Below, piece by piece: positions 52,660 to 60,257 of a stretch of 64,000 bases of DNA; within the stretch, counting starts at the first letter, position 1, and the number at the start of each line of letters is the position of its first letter. Made by a program: the position numbers and the translations under genes. The notes beneath the pieces were generated by a model. It did not search any database and was not told where the DNA came from. It was given only the letters and a program-made list of their open reading frames with translations. The stretch comes from a virus (taxonomy: Duplodnaviria > Heunggongvirae > Uroviricota > Caudoviricetes), in the IMG/VR virus record IMGVR_UViG_3300025072_002801. The stretch is one strand, 5' to 3'.

Positions 52660-53832
52660 ATGTCAACTGCAAAAAATAGAAGAAAAGTGGCGCATAAAAT
52701 TTCTAGGGGAGTTGAGAAATTCCTTGAGGAAAACAAGGATTCGACAGAGCCAGCCAAGGTAGCTGTCCACACTGCTGTGGAAGGAACTTTGAAAAGCTTG
52801 CAGGGCAATATCGGCGCTGATCTTGACGCAGTGGCAAGAGAGCAGAGTATTGCATTGGCGAAAACTTTGCAAAAATCACTTTTTCAATTGGCTAACGACA
52901 CTTGGTTCGACCATGACAAGGGAGATATGATGATAGTGCCAGAAGGCACTAGATTTGTACATCGTCAAGGAACAACTGTTTACATCGCAATTGAAGAAAA
53001 GCCTCAAGTTAGAAGTATTAGATACGAAAAAGGAAATAGAACCTATAATTACAGGGTTGCTTTGCCTTATTGTATCTTTATTTTCCCCGTTGGGACTTTT
53101 GTTGATGATAACGGAAATCCACGTTACAACCTGAATCAAGGAAAGTTGGCATTTTCGAAACAGCCACTTACATCTCTTGATCAGGAGGTGTATTGTCCGT
53201 GCCTTCCTAACATCAATACAGAAGATAGAGAATTGAAGATTTGCATGGGTGGAGCGTTTAACTTCAATGTAAATGAAACTCTGTGCGAACAAATAAGACT
53301 TTACATAACTCACTTCTGGGGCGCTCCATTCGGAACAGATTGGGCACATGAATTTGAAAGAATGGGCGGAAAAGACAGAAGGTTTGCAAATTTCAACAGA
53401 TGGCAAACTGCATCGGAAGAAAATCCGTTGTTTGTTTTGGAAGATGAAATCGAATATAGATCTGCCGGAACATTTGGAAAGTTGGTGCTGGAGAACATTA
53501 CTGACAGCAGCGATATTAACGTTCCGTTGCGTAAGATTGTAAAAACTGCTGTTGACAGTCTTGGTCAAGATGTGATCAGAACATTGAGACAGGCTGACTT
53601 GCTGAAAAACTTTGACGCCAAGACGGTTGACAAGTGTGTGTATGAGTTGATGTGTAAGTGTGTTCGTGATTGCGTTGATTCTGTTACAGATGATTTGGTT
53701 GTTGAAGACAGAGAAGAATTCAACAGTTCCAGAGATAGCCTTGAGGACGACTTGACCGACCTTCTTGTCACTCTTGAGAAAAGAGTAACCAAAGAAAAAG
53801 GTGAATCGTCTGGTTATTGGGGAAAAATTTAA
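52660..53832 (+). CDS. Hypothetical protein, paralog of 57326-58294, with a possible divergent UBC/E2-like core
   Basis: Shares P.GTRF...VY...E..P.VRSI.Y with the 57326 protein; LPNINTEDRELKICMGG resembles a degenerate E2 HPNI...G.ICL active-site stretch (H replaced by L). Confidence 0.5.
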   Translation: MSTAKNRRKVAHKISRGVEKFLEENKDSTEPAKVAVHTAVEGTLKSLQGNIGADLDAVAREQSIALAKTLQKSLFQLANDTWFDHDKGDMMIVPEGTRFVHRQGTTVYIAIEEKPQVRSIRYEKGNRTYNYRVALPYCIFIFPVGTFVDDNGNPRYNLNQGKLAFSKQPLTSLDQEVYCPCLPNINTEDRELKICMGGAFNFNVNETLCEQIRLYITHFWGAPFGTDWAHEFERMGGKDRRFANFNRWQTASEENPLFVLEDEIEYRSAGTFGKLVLENITDSSDINVPLRKIVKTAVDSLGQDVIRTLRQADLLKNFDAKTVDKCVYELMCKCVRDCVDSVTDDLVVEDREEFNSSRDSLEDDLTDLLVTLEKRVTKEKGESSGYWGKI

Positions 53833-53841
53833 TCATTTCAT

Positions 53842-53870
53842 TTGTCAATTGTACGATTCTTAAGTATAAT
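53842..53870 (+). promoter_or_regulatory. Sigma-70-like promoter TTGTCA-17-TATAAT
   Basis: Exact 17-nt spacer. Confidence 0.5.
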
Positions 53871-53927
53871 GGTTATAACGACGAACGAAAAGAAAAGTTG
53901 ATGACGGAAAAATTTGGTAATTTTTCA

Positions 53928-53956
53928 CTTACCAAATCAAAGTTTACGAAGTATAA
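53928..53956 (+). promoter_or_regulatory. Sigma-70-like promoter TTACCA-17-TATAAT
   Basis: Exact 17-nt spacer; 45 nt upstream of the JAB gene. Confidence 0.45.
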
Positions 53957-53999
53957 TCTCTAGTAGAAGTTAAAACATTTTCGAGTTTGGGAGAAAAAG

Positions 54000-55163
54000 A
54001 TGAGTTTGACATTTCCTATCTACGTTGCTGAAAAAGGCAAGAAGTTGCCTGCAAAGGGAACGTATTATGTTGTGGGTCGCACAAGAAATTACTTGCATAA
54101 AGACACTGGACTTGTGCGTGCATTGGTTGAAGTTGATTCTATCGGTGCTTTGCAAGACATTGAGCCATACGTTCAATTGTTGCTTCCAAAGCTTCCGCCA
54201 GACATTTTGTATCGTGCATGGAAGTTTTTCAATGCGGCATACAATAAGTTTAAGTCGGAATCTGCCGTAGTGATTCACTACAACAAAGATGATGGAGAAT
54301 ACTATCTCCATTGCCCAGAGCAAACAGTTAGTCATGGAAGTGTCAACTATGATCTGGATGATCGTTTTGAAAACTATCAATTGGTAGGAACGATCCACAG
54401 TCACGCAGATTTCAATGCGTTCCACAGTGGAACAGACATTGATGATGAAGTCGATCAGGATGGAGTTCACATCACACTCGGTCATGTGGATGGCAAATAT
54501 TTTTCGGCTTCCGCTTGTTTGGTTGTGAATGGGACTCGTTTTGAAACGGCATTGGAGAACACTGGTCTTGGTGTTCGCAGAGTTACGATGAAAGATGGTG
54601 ATCCAAATATTTCGGCTGGACGTGCCGACCGATACATGGTGTCATTGAGCGATGAGGAAAAAGCCGCTGTTGATGCCGCTTATGATCAAGAGATCAAGGA
54701 TTGGGTTAAGGATAAGGTGTCTGGGAGACAAACTGGGTTCAACAGAGGTTCCGTTGTAAGTTACCCAAGCACAACCCCTGCCAGCAATGGCAATAGTAGT
54801 GGTGTTTCTTCGACTTCGACTCGAAATGAGAGCACTTTTGTTCATCGTCTCGATCCAAAGGGGTCTGGTCGCAAGGGTTGGTTCAACCAAAATGGCGATG
54901 AATTGAATCCTTCCGATAATGAAACTTCTGCGGAAAAGCCAGAAAACGAAACTTCTGAGCAACCAGAAAACTGGGACGCTGAGGCGGTTTTGGCAGAGAA
55001 TGATTTGCTTGAAGGTGCCGAACTGCCTAAAGCTGACGACGATGTTGTCGATTTGACTATTGCTGATGATTCTTCGGAAGAATCTTCGGACGATGTTCCT
55101 GCTGGTGTTGCGGATCATCTTGACGAAAAAGAAGAGCCCACGATTGGGCAGAAGGACAGTTAA
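54000..55163 (+). CDS. JAB/MPN+ (JAMM) metallopeptidase with a long acidic C-terminal tail
   Basis: E...HSHADFNAFHSGTD = E-x(n)-HxH-x7-S-x2-D JAMM zinc motif; C-terminal 150 aa Asp/Glu/Ser-rich. Confidence 0.75.
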   Translation: MSLTFPIYVAEKGKKLPAKGTYYVVGRTRNYLHKDTGLVRALVEVDSIGALQDIEPYVQLLLPKLPPDILYRAWKFFNAAYNKFKSESAVVIHYNKDDGEYYLHCPEQTVSHGSVNYDLDDRFENYQLVGTIHSHADFNAFHSGTDIDDEVDQDGVHITLGHVDGKYFSASACLVVNGTRFETALENTGLGVRRVTMKDGDPNISAGRADRYMVSLSDEEKAAVDAAYDQEIKDWVKDKVSGRQTGFNRGSVVSYPSTTPASNGNSSGVSSTSTRNESTFVHRLDPKGSGRKGWFNQNGDELNPSDNETSAEKPENETSEQPENWDAEAVLAENDLLEGAELPKADDDVVDLTIADDSSEESSDDVPAGVADHLDEKEEPTIGQKDS

Positions 55164-58943: not shown

Positions 58944-58954
58944 AAGTTAAAAAA

Positions 58955-59275
58955 ATGAATGAAGAAACAAATTCTCTTGCAAATCTTATTGATAGATGGT
59001 CAAAGTTGTATGAATGTGAAATTGATGTAATTGCAACAGTTGACAATATTTACATTGGCGCAAAAGTGTGGAAAGGTCCTACTTGGGGATGGTGGGTCGA
59101 AGCTGACGAACAAGTTTTCGGAAAAGAACAAGAAGGAGAAGGAGCAGGAGTGGGAATTGTTCGCTCCATGCCAAGAAAAATTAACGGTCAAATGTATGTC
59201 AATGTCGAATGGGAAAGTGGCGTTAGTAATGCATATTCAATAAGTCCAGAACAAGATCTCGTGTTGATTATATGA
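58955..59275 (+). CDS. MIB/HERC2-domain protein, tandem paralog 3
   Basis: IGAKVWKGPTWGWWVEAD...GIVRS...YVNVEWESGVSNAYSISPEQDLVL; N-terminus MNEETNSLANLIDRWSKLYECE almost identical to paralog 2. Confidence 0.7.
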   Translation: MNEETNSLANLIDRWSKLYECEIDVIATVDNIYIGAKVWKGPTWGWWVEADEQVFGKEQEGEGAGVGIVRSMPRKINGQMYVNVEWESGVSNAYSISPEQDLVLII

Positions 59276-59637
59276 TTGTTCCAAAATCTATTAAATGTGT
59301 TTTTGAATCGTGGATAGAATTGAATGGCATTACATACAATTCTCGCATTTATGAACAAAGAAAATGCTGTAGAGCAGTAAGTGAATGCGTTAGGCAATGG
59401 GATGTGTATTGTGGTGGTAATTTATTTTTGAATAATAAAAATGTATTTGTTGGAGCAAAAGTTCAAGATTTGTGTGGAGCCCATCGCCAATACGATGGCG
59501 AAATTGGAACGGTAATAGATGTTAGTAAAGTTTCCTATCCAGAGTGGCCGCAAGCACACATGGATGTTGTGATTCAATTTGATGGAGTTAAAATGTCTGG
59601 GTTTTATTATTACGAAGATTATGTATTTGTTGATTGA
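59272..59637 (+). CDS. MIB/HERC2-like domain protein, tandem paralog 4 (divergent)
   Basis: VFVGAKVQDL...GEIGTVIDV...VVIQFDGVKMSGFYYYEDYVFV. Confidence 0.55.
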   Translation: MIVPKSIKCVFESWIELNGITYNSRIYEQRKCCRAVSECVRQWDVYCGGNLFLNNKNVFVGAKVQDLCGAHRQYDGEIGTVIDVSKVSYPEWPQAHMDVVIQFDGVKMSGFYYYEDYVFVD

Positions 59638-59640
59638 ATT

Positions 59641-59955
59641 ATGAATAAAAATAACGACAACACTTTTGTGATGGAACGTCTTGTGGATGTGTGGGGAGAG
59701 TTAAATGGATGCGTAATTGAAGACGAAGTTGTTACAAAAGAAAATGCATTTGTAGGGGCAAGAGTCGCAAAGGGTCCAGACTGGGATTGGGGAGATCAAA
59801 ACATTAATCCAAGAAGTGGGTTAGAAATGTATGGGAAAATTTTACGGTTGGACTCCGAAGATGAGTTCAACGAATATTGGGTGCAAGTCGAGTGGGAGAA
59901 TGGAAGGGGAGACTCCTACAGAGTATATCCACAACGAGAGTTGGTGTTCGCATGA
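59641..59955 (+). CDS. MIB/HERC2-domain protein, tandem paralog 5
   Basis: VGARVAKGPDWDWGDQNINPRSGLEMYGKILRL...YWVQVEWENGRGDSYRVYPQRELVFA. Confidence 0.75.
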   Translation: MNKNNDNTFVMERLVDVWGELNGCVIEDEVVTKENAFVGARVAKGPDWDWGDQNINPRSGLEMYGKILRLDSEDEFNEYWVQVEWENGRGDSYRVYPQRELVFA

Positions 59956-60257
59956 ACAGACATAACGACAACACTTTTGTGATGGAACGTCTTGTGGATG
60001 TGTGGGGAGAGTTGTATGATTGTTCAATTAGACCGAAAGGTGTAATTACAAAAGAAAATGCATATGTCGGAGCAAAAGTAATGAGAGGACCAGATTGGGG
60101 AGAATTATATGATTGTTCAATTCTATCACCAGAAGAATTGACGTGGACATGGAATGAATACGTTGAAGCGTTATCAAGAAAAAAACAACCAGTTTCATAC
60201 GACGATATGCGAAATGTTGGCGATAATGAACTGTTGCATATTAGGAGAATGAAATGA
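59952..60257 (+). CDS. MIB/HERC2-domain protein, tandem paralog 6 (C-terminal half divergent)
   Basis: MNRHNDNTFVMERLVDVWGEL...VGAKVMRGPDWGELYDCS; the first 20 codons are near-identical to paralog 5. Start set at the internal ATG overlapping the previous stop. Confidence 0.6.
   Translation: MNRHNDNTFVMERLVDVWGELYDCSIRPKGVITKENAYVGAKVMRGPDWGELYDCSILSPEELTWTWNEYVEALSRKKQPVSYDDMRNVGDNELLHIRRMK

Follow-up and report, generated by a model that had tools for sequence, protein, structure and literature searches.

We analysed a stretch of 64,000 nucleotides of DNA catalogued as viral (IMG/VR record IMGVR_UViG_3300025072_002801), hereafter called the window. It carries genes of a ubiquitin-like conjugation cassette, followed by a tandem array of six small genes related to the MIB/HERC2 domain. 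The cassette encodes a ubiquitin-like protein candidate (Ubl), a ThiF-type adenylyltransferase (E1), a JAB/JAMM metalloprotease (JAB) and three E2-like paralogs (E2a, E2b and E2c), and between 51448 and 60257 every cassette and array gene lies on the + strand (Table 1). An earlier note on this DNA had described the cassette as directly coupled to the array. Our comparison with related loci makes it probable that two things merely stand side by side, a conserved Ubl-conjugation module and a separate, lineage-specific MIB array. The interpretation of the cassette as a Ubl-conjugation system is well supported by sequence comparisons and synteny, and the same holds for our conclusion that it is a conserved module of large phages and not a one-off. 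Prokaryotic Ubl systems of this kind were known but uncharacterised; new is what appears to be a variant widespread in phages, together with an unusual adjoining gene family.

The conservation of the cassette was studied on IMG/VR contigs and metagenomic contigs. An IMG/VR scan with the E1 of the window as a single protein gave no match and a broader alignment was needed, by help of which 79 viral loci were retrieved; these were then scanned for the cassette genes with hidden Markov models. Besides E1, which was present in all 79 viral loci, JAB was detected in 77, Ubl in 67 and E2 in 62 of them, and the order E2-JAB-E1-Ubl was kept in more than 60. The E2 protein of most ordered loci is large, with roughly 800-900 amino acids (aa) or more. 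The metagenomic contigs comprised four that are near-identical to the window (L001-L004) and seven relatives (L005-L011). E1 proteins of the relatives are at most 67% identical to that of the window, and all neighbourhoods were scanned within approximately 10 kb. In L005-L008 (E1 identity 58-67% and 46%), an E2b-like gene, JAB, E1 and Ubl follow one another in this order, accompanied by one to three extra E2 paralogs each (three in tandem in L007); L006 harbors an E2c-like pair 9 kb downstream of the core. Clustering of the neighbouring genes of 72 loci revealed that only the four core families were universal and did not disclose a fifth conserved family. Thus, the phage-borne Ubl/E1/E2/JAB cassette recognized in the earlier note held up, its motifs being conserved across dozens of homologs and its gene order in most of the 79 loci.

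We infer that the window is phage DNA, an assignment which is strengthened by its relatives, namely the 79 viral contigs of IMG/VR and large phages of two kinds that have been cultured. One is Bacillus phage vB_BauM_KLEB27-3, which encodes an E2-like protein (gp196), a protein annotated as 'PRTRC_A domain' (gp195) and ThiF (gp194); in the other, Vibrio phage D69, JAB adjoins E1. A megablast search of the region against GenBank phages and tblastn searches of E2b and of the array protein M5 against phages gave no match. An E1 identical to that of the window was also found on metagenomic contigs of 129 kb and 389 kb, and many of the 709 E1 homologs obtained at E<=1e-3 reside on contigs of 240-670 kb.

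JAB contains the motif HSHADFNAFHSGTD (54396-54437) with H133-S-H-x7-S143-x2-D146, along with Glu87. The six residues E87, H133, S134, H135, S143 and D146 were kept by all 65 distinct JAB homologs, so that the JAMM motif HSH-x7-S-x2-D described in the earlier note is not only present but also invariant. The C-terminal half of JAB is acidic, Ser-rich and of low complexity, and two further conserved residues of the family, R180 and W235, are both located C-terminal to the JAMM motif. JAB matched the NCBIfam profile PRTRC_A (TIGR03735) with an E-value of 2e-12 over profile positions 21-188 of 192, at 47.1 bits, which is below the curated cut-off of 101.8; the match to Pfam Prok-JAB (PF14464; 4e-5, 23.9 bits) fell just below the cut-off of 25. 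For E1, the ThiF/MoeB signature previously noticed was recovered completely. The protein exhibits GVGGIG (55212-55229), CVDNHSTRK and Asp112, and a candidate catalytic residue, Cys187, resides within the sequence GGCA (55716-55727). ThiF (PF00899; 1.4e-12, 47.7 bits, cut-off 28.1) was the only domain seen with Pfam. All of 29 E1 homologs keep GxGGIG, D48, R59, K68 and D112, and at least 90% keep C187. The best NCBIfam match of E1 was the ThiF adenylyltransferase of thiazole biosynthesis (1.3e-10), and PRTRC_ThiF (TIGR03736) was matched with 2.6e-10 over profile positions 13-219 of 245, its 40.0 bits being below the curated cut-off of 144.75.

The putative Ubl consists of a disordered N-terminal tail rich in Q, D and A and a ThiS-like domain of approximately 70 aa. 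The 64 distinct homologs of this protein share the terminus ...LEF(I/L)K.(A/S)G.KG. Forty-five of them end exactly at KG, the remainder possessing one to approximately ten extra residues, often a single Cys; such extended C-termini are an expected substrate for a trimming peptidase. A beta-grasp fold is predicted from matches of homologs, of which the one in L064 hit Pfam TGS (1.2e-7) and ThiS (3e-5) and the one in L033 hit TGS weakly (0.0028, below the cut-off), and from hhalign, which aligned a profile of 19 Ubl sequences in register with ThiS, SAMP2 and TtuB at a probability of 72%. The folds of the cassette proteins are in general suggested by such profile evidence. Of the claim that a ThiS-like beta-grasp protein ending in Gly is encoded here, the terminal Gly was seen, but the fold was not confirmed by AlphaFold (see below). 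Two Ubl homologs of the major clade are longer, with 165 aa (L033:10679-11173) and 338 aa (L064:10650-11663). Both revealed a sub-threshold N-terminal match to SAP or Rho_N, no stretch of which passed on its own, and the 338-aa protein appears to contain more than one beta-grasp unit.

Three E2-like genes are present in the window. The earlier note had counted two, E2b and E2c, both of which are real paralogs (BLASTP 1e-18), but it had missed E2a, which is located further upstream (51448-52071), outside the range it had considered. E2a is linked to E2b and E2c by BLASTP values of 7e-10 and 8e-7 and is the only one of the three that matches Pfam Prok-E2_D (PF14460; 2.2e-6, 27.9 bits, cut-off 25), E2b and E2c having no direct Pfam match of their own; the E2 homolog in L036 reached 18.3 bits with this profile. 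In E2b, whose Cys195 is encoded at 53242-53244, helical extensions are found at the N- and C-terminus. Across 14 E2 paralogs, E112, P115, R118, P136, N184, C195, W220 and W248 (E2b numbering) are invariant, the Asn preceding the Cys by 9-11 residues. This LPN...C arrangement resembles HPN...C of E2 enzymes, except that the LPN motif has no His; a His further downstream (xxHFW) is present in the E2b-type copies and in two copies of L007, not in E2a and E2c. Orthologs of E2b lie immediately 5' of JAB in L005, L006 and L008, and E2a orthologs were detected in L005 and L006. For E2c, the orthologous proteins P0124 and P0125 (46% identity) and an ortholog in L006 were identified, at varying distances from the core.

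Table 1. Features of the window (positions in nucleotides of the 64,000-nucleotide stretch; aa, amino acids)
Feature	Position	Strand	Description
SPFH/Band 7 tandem paralogs	48119-51379		520 and 555 aa; just upstream of E2a
E2a	51448-52071	+	207 aa; minimal Prok-E2_D-like; Asn79, Cys88 (51709-51711)
NDT	52072-52584	+	170 aa; nucleoside 2-deoxyribosyltransferase-like; Pfam Nuc_deoxyri_tr2 1.4e-14
Promoter-like site	52594-52622	+	TTTACA-N17-TATAAT; 11/12; intergenic, upstream of E2b
E2b	52660-53832	+	390 aa; opens the conserved core; LPN motif with Asn184
Two promoter-like sites	53842-53957	+	upstream of JAB; 53842, 11/12; 53929, 10/12
JAB/JAMM metalloprotease (JAB)	54000-55163	+	387 aa; abuts E1 at 55164
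E1 adenylyltransferase, ThiF-type	55164-55916	+	250 aa
Promoter-like site	55925-55953	+	11/12; intergenic, for Ubl alone
Ubl candidate	56040-56387	+	115 aa; end ...EFIRQAGVKG; Gly115 at 56382-56384
Intrinsic terminator	56433-56466	+	15-bp stem and T-run; closes core cassette after Ubl
X151, X129	56491-57316	+	151 and 129 aa; between terminator and E2c
E2c	57326-58294	+	322 aa; Asn181, Cys192 (57899-57901); adjoins MIB array
Six-gene tandem array	58284-60257	+	genes of 101-121 aa
M1	58284-58619	+	MIB/HERC2 domain
M2	58623-58943	+	MIB/HERC2 domain
M3	58955-59275	+	MIB/HERC2 domain
M4	59272-59637	+	very diverged
M5	59641-59955	+	MIB/HERC2 domain
M6	59952-60257	+	rearranged
d63, d72, d80, d146			four small genes after the array, before the tRNA cluster; names give the length in aa
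tRNA cluster	61446-63344		five genes: Met, Met, Pro, Trp, Asp

The regulatory layout of the cassette was also compared. On the + strand of the window seven promoter-like sites scored 11/12 (4820, 52594, 53842, 55925, 61409, 62085 and 63356), three of which are located within the cassette. Several of the seven exhibit AAGTATAAT as an extended -10 element, followed approximately 10 nt downstream by a sequence like TATAAGA(C), and together they look like one phage promoter class. Two of these seven best sigma-70-like sites precede tRNA genes. In L005 and L006 the sequence TTTAC(A/C)-N17/18-TATAAT occurs before both JAB and Ubl, in L008 before JAB only, and Ubl is succeeded by a strong hairpin and a T-run in L005, L006, L007 and L008 as well. 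Since this layout of promoters and terminator is kept in relatives, the core would be a unit of its own with a promoter dedicated to the tag. Promoters had been listed in the earlier note at 52594, 53842, 53928 and 55924, and we found the corresponding sites at 52594, 53842, 53929 and 55925. The high expression that had been deduced from them is plausible because the placement of the promoters is conserved in relatives.

Based on these data, we propose that the core E2b-JAB-E1-Ubl (52660-56387), with E2a upstream and E2c downstream, constitutes a conjugation module of large or huge phages. By inference from the E1 and E2 families, the ThiF-type E1 would adenylate Gly115 of Ubl and probably load Ubl onto Cys187. 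An E2_D-like protein would then accept Ubl on its invariant Cys (Cys195, Cys88 or Cys192) and transfer it to lysines of target proteins. The JAMM protease may trim the short C-terminal extensions that occur in about a quarter of the Ubl homologs and recycle conjugates. There is no E3. Both the number (1-4) and the size (approximately 170 to 1,100 aa) of the E2 proteins vary, which suggests that the E2 paralogs may themselves supply the choice of the target. An abundant and probably early expression is suggested by the module's own strong promoters, one of them for Ubl alone, and its own terminator. As for the targets, transcription or nucleoid proteins are the most likely ones in view of sigma factor and RNA polymerase genes in the neighbourhood and the weak SAP/Rho_N matches of Ubl homologs, a suggestion that is speculative.

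The neighbours in question are the following. In the largest clade the neighbours are genes of a multisubunit RNA polymerase, the cassette being directly followed in 44 IMG/VR loci by genes of beta' (approximately 907 aa) and beta (approximately 1026 aa); these loci are among L032-L091 (e.g., L032:7136-12905 and L033:968-6330) and carry genes for an SbcC-like protein, a radical SAM protein and WYL_2 upstream and for a FolE2 GTP cyclohydrolase downstream. In the clade of the window a gene for a sigma-70-family factor is situated directly upstream of E2b in ten loci, including L005 and L008. Members of this clade repeatedly have genes for a TROVE (Ro60-like) protein and a polynucleotide kinase/phosphatase less than 10 kb away from the cassette (e.g., L005:3163-5019, L006:3827-5689 and L007:1-1764), and the cultured Bacillus phage relative possesses genes for an RNA ligase, a polynucleotide kinase/phosphatase and a CCA-adding enzyme nearby. 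Taken together, these genes around the cassette look like an RNA-repair neighbourhood.

We also asked how the module is related to systems already described. In the searchable literature, which is incomplete, no description of this phage Ubl module or of phage MIB arrays was found, and a detailed comparative review of jumbo phages makes no mention of a Ubl/JAB/ThiF system (PMC7824862). Among systems already described, the PRTRC cassette (ParB-related, ThiF-related; TIGR03735-03738 and partners) comes nearest, along with its equivalent, the fourth operon type in the survey by Iyer et al. 2006 (Table 1 therein, row 6d). In this operon type JAB and E1 are combined with a Ubl that ends in Gly and with an E2-like protein that has the Cys but lacks the classical His (PMC1779556), and PRTRC cassettes are located on integrative and conjugative elements, plasmids and a temperate Burkholderia phage (PMC13366799, PMC3318190). 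Like these, the phage module has separate, adjacent genes for JAB and E1, a small Ubl candidate that is encoded on its own and whose C-terminal Gly is conserved, and a putative E2 of the Prok-E2_D kind with a conserved Cys and without the His of HPN, and it resides on mobile or viral DNA. Consistent with type 6d, JAB abuts E1 and E1 has no rhodanese domain. As to the helical charged protein and the Arg and Trp of JAB-N in that class, no fifth family was found, and R180 and W235 of the phage JAB are C-terminal to the motif.

The best specific matches of JAB and E1 were PRTRC_A and PRTRC_ThiF, but the phage cassette scores far below the curated cut-offs of these profiles. PRTRC B (E2-like), C (Ubl), D, E and F gave no NCBIfam match at E<=1 with nine cassette proteins and M5, and a ParB match was likewise not obtained with these ten proteins, the whole genome not having been searched for it. 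A strict membership in PRTRC was rejected on the grounds of these scores and of the missing B-F and ParB matches. The phage module differs from PRTRC also in the multiplied E2 genes (three here, 1-4 elsewhere), which often encode proteins of approximately 850 aa and more, in the N-terminus of Ubl, which forms a disordered tail or, in some homologs, weakly matches SAP/Rho_N, and in a gene order and regulatory layout specific to large phages. A role in maintenance or partition, of the sort implied by the loose annotation of PRTRC ('ParB/ThiF partitioning cassette'), could be argued from the likeness of JAB and E1 to PRTRC_A and PRTRC_ThiF and from the mobile elements and the Burkholderia phage that harbor PRTRC (PMC13366799, PMC3318190). 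We regard this role as most improbable, as ParB and PRTRC B-F matches were missing, the PRTRC scores stayed far below the cut-offs and the carriers look like lytic-style huge phages with tRNAs and transcription genes of their own; moreover, the function of PRTRC is itself unstudied and its partition role has never been tested (PMC13366799).

The bacterial immune systems that use related machinery were compared in the same way. Bil shares with the phage module Ubl, E1, E2 and a JAB-type deubiquitinase and the lack of an E3, and the C-terminal Gly of its Ubl is essential and conserved (10.1101/2023.09.04.556158). In contrast, Bil is encoded by the host, tags the central tail fibre of phages and has a BilA with two ubiquitin-like domains, whereas the present system is encoded by a phage and comprises multiple E2s. 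Of the PADLOC models for Bil, BilD matched E1 with 0.0048 (13.6 bits), and BilA, BilB and BilC gave no match. The cyclic oligonucleotide-based antiphage signalling system (CBASS) with Cap2/Cap3 and the Bub system resemble the module in having prokaryotic E1/E2-type machinery and a dedicated peptidase. Cap2, however, is a fusion of E2 and E1 acting on a CD-NTase, while E1 and E2 are separate here; the PADLOC E1-E2 model reached 0.011 and Pfam did not detect a nucleotidyltransferase in the cassette. A membership in Bil or CBASS was rejected on the PADLOC scores. Bub employs oxyester (serine) intermediates and a serine protease (PMC11601596), from which the cassette with its conserved E2 Cys, E1 Cys187 and JAMM metalloprotease differs. 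The TAPI protein and the JAB-NlpC protein TAPK of lambda/T1 tail assembly likewise combine a phage beta-grasp protein with a conserved Gly and a JAB (PMC1779556), but that system is without E1 or E2 and lies in a tail-assembly cluster, whereas the present cassette is placed amid genes of transcription and nucleic-acid metabolism and not amid structural genes.

Could the cassette serve counter-defence, neutralising Ubl-based immunity of the host (Bil, CBASS Cap2/Cap3, Bub) by a JAB that strips host Ubl, or by decoys or modifiers? Bacterial Ubl systems attack structural proteins of phages, and deubiquitinase domains of phages have been proposed as counter-measures (10.1101/2023.09.04.556158); the invariant JAMM site and the strong promoters, which fit early expression, would agree with such a role. 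Yet a deconjugase alone would suffice for this purpose, and E1, Ubl and at least one intact E2 are conserved along with JAB in most loci. This joint conservation, including the catalytic residues, argues for an active conjugation by the phage. Furthermore, beyond the weak E1 similarity (BilD 0.0048, E1-E2 0.011) no component resembles Bil or CBASS. We therefore judge counter-defence unlikely.

A sulfur carrier would be another possibility, in which a ThiS/MoaD-type protein is thiocarboxylated via a ThiF-like enzyme for the synthesis of a cofactor or the modification of nucleotides or tRNA. The thiazole biosynthesis ThiF as the best NCBIfam match of E1, the minimal, ThiF/MoeB-like E1 of 250 aa, the radical SAM and FolE2 neighbours in other clades and the adjacent NDT-like gene of the window could be taken in its favour. 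We consider it very unlikely, given that the conserved block contains no rhodanese, cysteine desulfurase or sulfur-insertion enzyme, that many Ubl homologs possess C-terminal extensions and extra N-terminal segments or domains, and that a JAMM peptidase is conserved together with one to four E2-like proteins whose Cys is invariant, a pattern which a published comparative analysis regards as a hallmark of conjugation systems (PMC1779556).

In eukaryotic E3 ligases, MIB/HERC2 domains serve to bind substrates. In the window, M1, M2, M3 and M5 are recognisable members with a family-specific N-terminal segment of approximately 30 aa and the pattern GARVxRGPDWxWGxQD ... G.V ... V.WD.G ... YR ... DL. 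A profile of these four matched both MIB repeats of human MIB1 (4xi6) with 8e-16 and HECTD1 with 8.5e-5. With Pfam MIB_HERC2 (PF06701, cut-off 33.5 bits), M2 (34.5) and M5 (42.0) scored above the cut-off and M1 (24.9 bits, 2e-5) and M3 (10.1 bits, 0.81) below it; M4 and M6 gave no match. The six near-textbook paralogs previously announced are in this respect four, as M4 is very diverged and M6 is rearranged. M4 is tied to the array by its position and by a 25-nt core that is common to all six genes at a spacing of 303-395 nt, its hhalign probability being 11%, and because of this shared core it should be a paralog by descent. In M6, GPDW is followed by an internal 27-nt duplication (60003 / 60096), and the second half of the domain has been lost; the duplication is the direct repeat TGGGGAGA(G/A)TT(G/A)TATGATTGTTCAATT, whose copies are 93 nt apart (60003-60122). 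A 15-nt piece of this repeat is also present at the M3/M4 junction (59267-59281), which suggests that recombination at short homologies reshuffles the array. The same array was found on contigs of two independent samples (L001 and L002) and is thus not an assembly artefact. Unlike eukaryotic MIB1, HERC2 and HECTD1, with which they share the domain pattern, the array proteins are stand-alone proteins of approximately 105 aa without RING, HECT, ZZ or ankyrin parts, encoded by tandem phage genes.

A HMMER scan of 1.84 billion representatives yielded 457 MIB-like proteins at E<=1e-3, so that the domain is rare outside eukaryotes. They comprise multi-repeat proteins, eukaryote-type proteins (RING, ZZ, Mind bomb SH3), prokaryote-type proteins (PPC, CARDB) and stand-alone proteins of 80-110 aa. 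A word-indexed protein search with M5 returned M5 itself only. In IMG/VR an alignment of the six paralogs gave no match, and a broader alignment gave 14 viral loci. One of them, L015:7843-10622 (IMGVR_UViG_3300044684_000278, 136 kb), contains an independent array of five MIB-like genes in tandem next to an ATPase gene, four encoding proteins of approximately 104-151 aa and one a protein of 204 aa; several of these proteins end in an LExxLxKLE helix, and no Ubl cassette was found within 10 kb of it. Three similar-sized small genes of another family precede this array. L019 contains two MIB genes. Most of the 56 metagenomic 'MIB' loci resemble eukaryotic exons, with short partial matches kilobases apart. 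Tandem MIB arrays are, judged from these contigs, a recurrent and independent feature of some large phages.

The coupling of cassette and array that the earlier note had put forward was not borne out by related loci. MIB genes were absent within 10 kb of the cassette in all 79 viral loci, and MIB-like open reading frames (ORFs) were absent within approximately 10 kb in all seven metagenomic relatives. Conversely, E1, E2 or Ubl were not detected near MIB genes in any of the 14 viral and 56 metagenomic loci, the JAB profile not having been run on the 56. Altogether, the pairing is shown by 0 of 79 viral loci, 0 of 7 relatives and 0 of 70 MIB loci. The synteny in other phages, which the note had proposed to examine, is conserved for E2-JAB-E1-Ubl and unique for the MIB part, and unique synteny was what the note itself had named as speaking against its proposal. 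On present data, the juxtaposition is restricted to the phage of the window. Orthologs of E2c in L006, L008 and L010 have no MIB neighbours. Downstream of the L010 ortholog (46% identity) there are three ORFs unlike MIB, with 58, 80 and 113 aa, and then a d72 homolog; since other ORFs are present there between the E2c ortholog and the d72 homolog, the array sits in a variable slot. Finally, the conserved terminator after Ubl stands approximately 1.8 kb upstream of the array. We propose that the array is a lineage-specific tandem expansion of SH3-like peptide binders in a hypervariable slot downstream of E2c. Most likely, its products are accessory binders of host or phage proteins that evolve by duplication and recombination and are not a component of the Ubl system.

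Several observations weigh against this interpretation of the two elements. E2c and M1 overlap (58284 vs 58294) without a promoter or terminator between them, and the genes from X151 to d146 are tightly packed on one strand without a strong promoter or terminator inside, so the array may be co-transcribed with E2c by reading through from upstream. The independence of the array is an argument from absence, drawn within +/-10 kb and from relatives with an E1 identity of at most 67%. Concerning the cassette, the E2 assignment comes from one Pfam match just above the cut-off and the Asn...Cys pattern. An hhalign comparison of the E2 family with UbcH5b, Ubc9 and Ubc13 gave a probability of 1%, an E2 profile matched no chain in the PDB, with noise only, and an AlphaFold model of E2a from a 5-sequence alignment had a predicted local distance difference test (pLDDT) score of 41 and was unusable for a fold search. 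With Ubl, the first profile matched a single PDB entry at E<=10, SAMP2 at E=1, a later profile found PF1061 at 0.8 among false positives with FHA domains, and the AlphaFold model of the single sequence (pLDDT 50.7) was again unusable for a fold search. The connection with transcription is purely one of gene neighbourhood, and the window itself carries neither sigma factor nor RNA polymerase genes. No capsid or terminase gene was found anywhere in the 64 kb.

A further explanation, which follows the earlier note, is that the MIB proteins act as E3-like adaptors or dedicated targets together with the cassette, especially E2c, aiming it at host or virion proteins. The contiguous or overlapping E2c and M1 and the dense run of genes would be expected under this model, as would the relationship to eukaryotic E3 substrate-binding modules (8e-16 to MIB1) in a cassette that encodes no E3. 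The adjacency of E2c and M1, however, weighs little because tight packing is the rule throughout this genome. The uniqueness of the pairing, the E2c orthologs devoid of MIB neighbours, the solitary MIB array of L015 and the conserved terminator parting the core from the array region all contradict the model, which we consider quite unlikely. A lineage-specific functional link between array and cassette is a possibility that the related loci do not support. If the adaptor model were true, the phage lineage would have recruited eukaryote-type substrate-binding modules as a diversifying set of adaptors for E2c and would possess a viral cascade of E1, E2, 'E3' and deubiquitinase that is retargeted by swapping small MIB adaptor genes, a counterpart in prokaryotic viruses of the substrate recognition by Mind bomb and HERC2.

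Bacterial Ubl conjugation is at present known chiefly as a means by which hosts defend themselves against phages (Bil, CBASS, Bub). If the conserved module, which we prefer to regard as separate from the array, conjugates proteins, the virus side would use this chemistry too, plausibly to take over the host or to control its own transcription. The module would also give the uncharacterised PRTRC-type systems an experimentally tractable relative. Because of the ...K-G tail of Ubl, digestion of conjugates with trypsin should leave target lysines marked by a mono-glycine remnant, and the targets could thereby be found by mass spectrometry. The stand-alone MIB/HERC2 arrays of phages are a separate small curiosity bearing on the viral circulation of 'eukaryotic' peptide-binding domains.

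Other genes are interspersed with the cassette or flank it. The membership of the NDT gene in the Ubl system is uncertain. The pair of E2a and NDT (Nuc_deoxyri_tr2) recurs in L005 (L005:1818-2348), not in L006, where a 728-aa protein occupies the slot after a short E2a paralog. X151 and X129 gave no match in Pfam, NCBIfam, PHROG and PADLOC; they were rejected as members of the system, since they occur only in the near-identical contigs L001-L004 and are absent from the relatives. The second of the two SPFH/Band 7 paralogs has a close ortholog in L005 at the same relative position. Between the first and second tRNA genes there is a 57-aa ORF (61539-61712), the product of which is extremely basic (rich in K, R and G).

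Almost all genes of the window lie on one strand, the GC skew is strongly positive, and several genes matched PHROG families. The window also encodes an RNA ligase of the T4 type. Assorted accessory genes are contained in the intervals 5-1519, 18184-19734, 63389-64000 and 25445-33103. One of the encoded proteins combines five treble-clef zinc-finger repeats of the DUF4379 type with a DnaJ fragment; the others are two endonucleases, a LAGLIDADG homing enzyme and an HNH enzyme, and the metabolic proteins aldehyde dehydrogenase and a thiamine pyrophosphate-dependent enzyme. A transposase gene (20134-21213, PHROG 506, 1.9e-131) is located on the - strand and coincides with a local dip in GC content (0.335) and in GC skew. 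Because of this drop, it is probably an inserted insertion sequence element.

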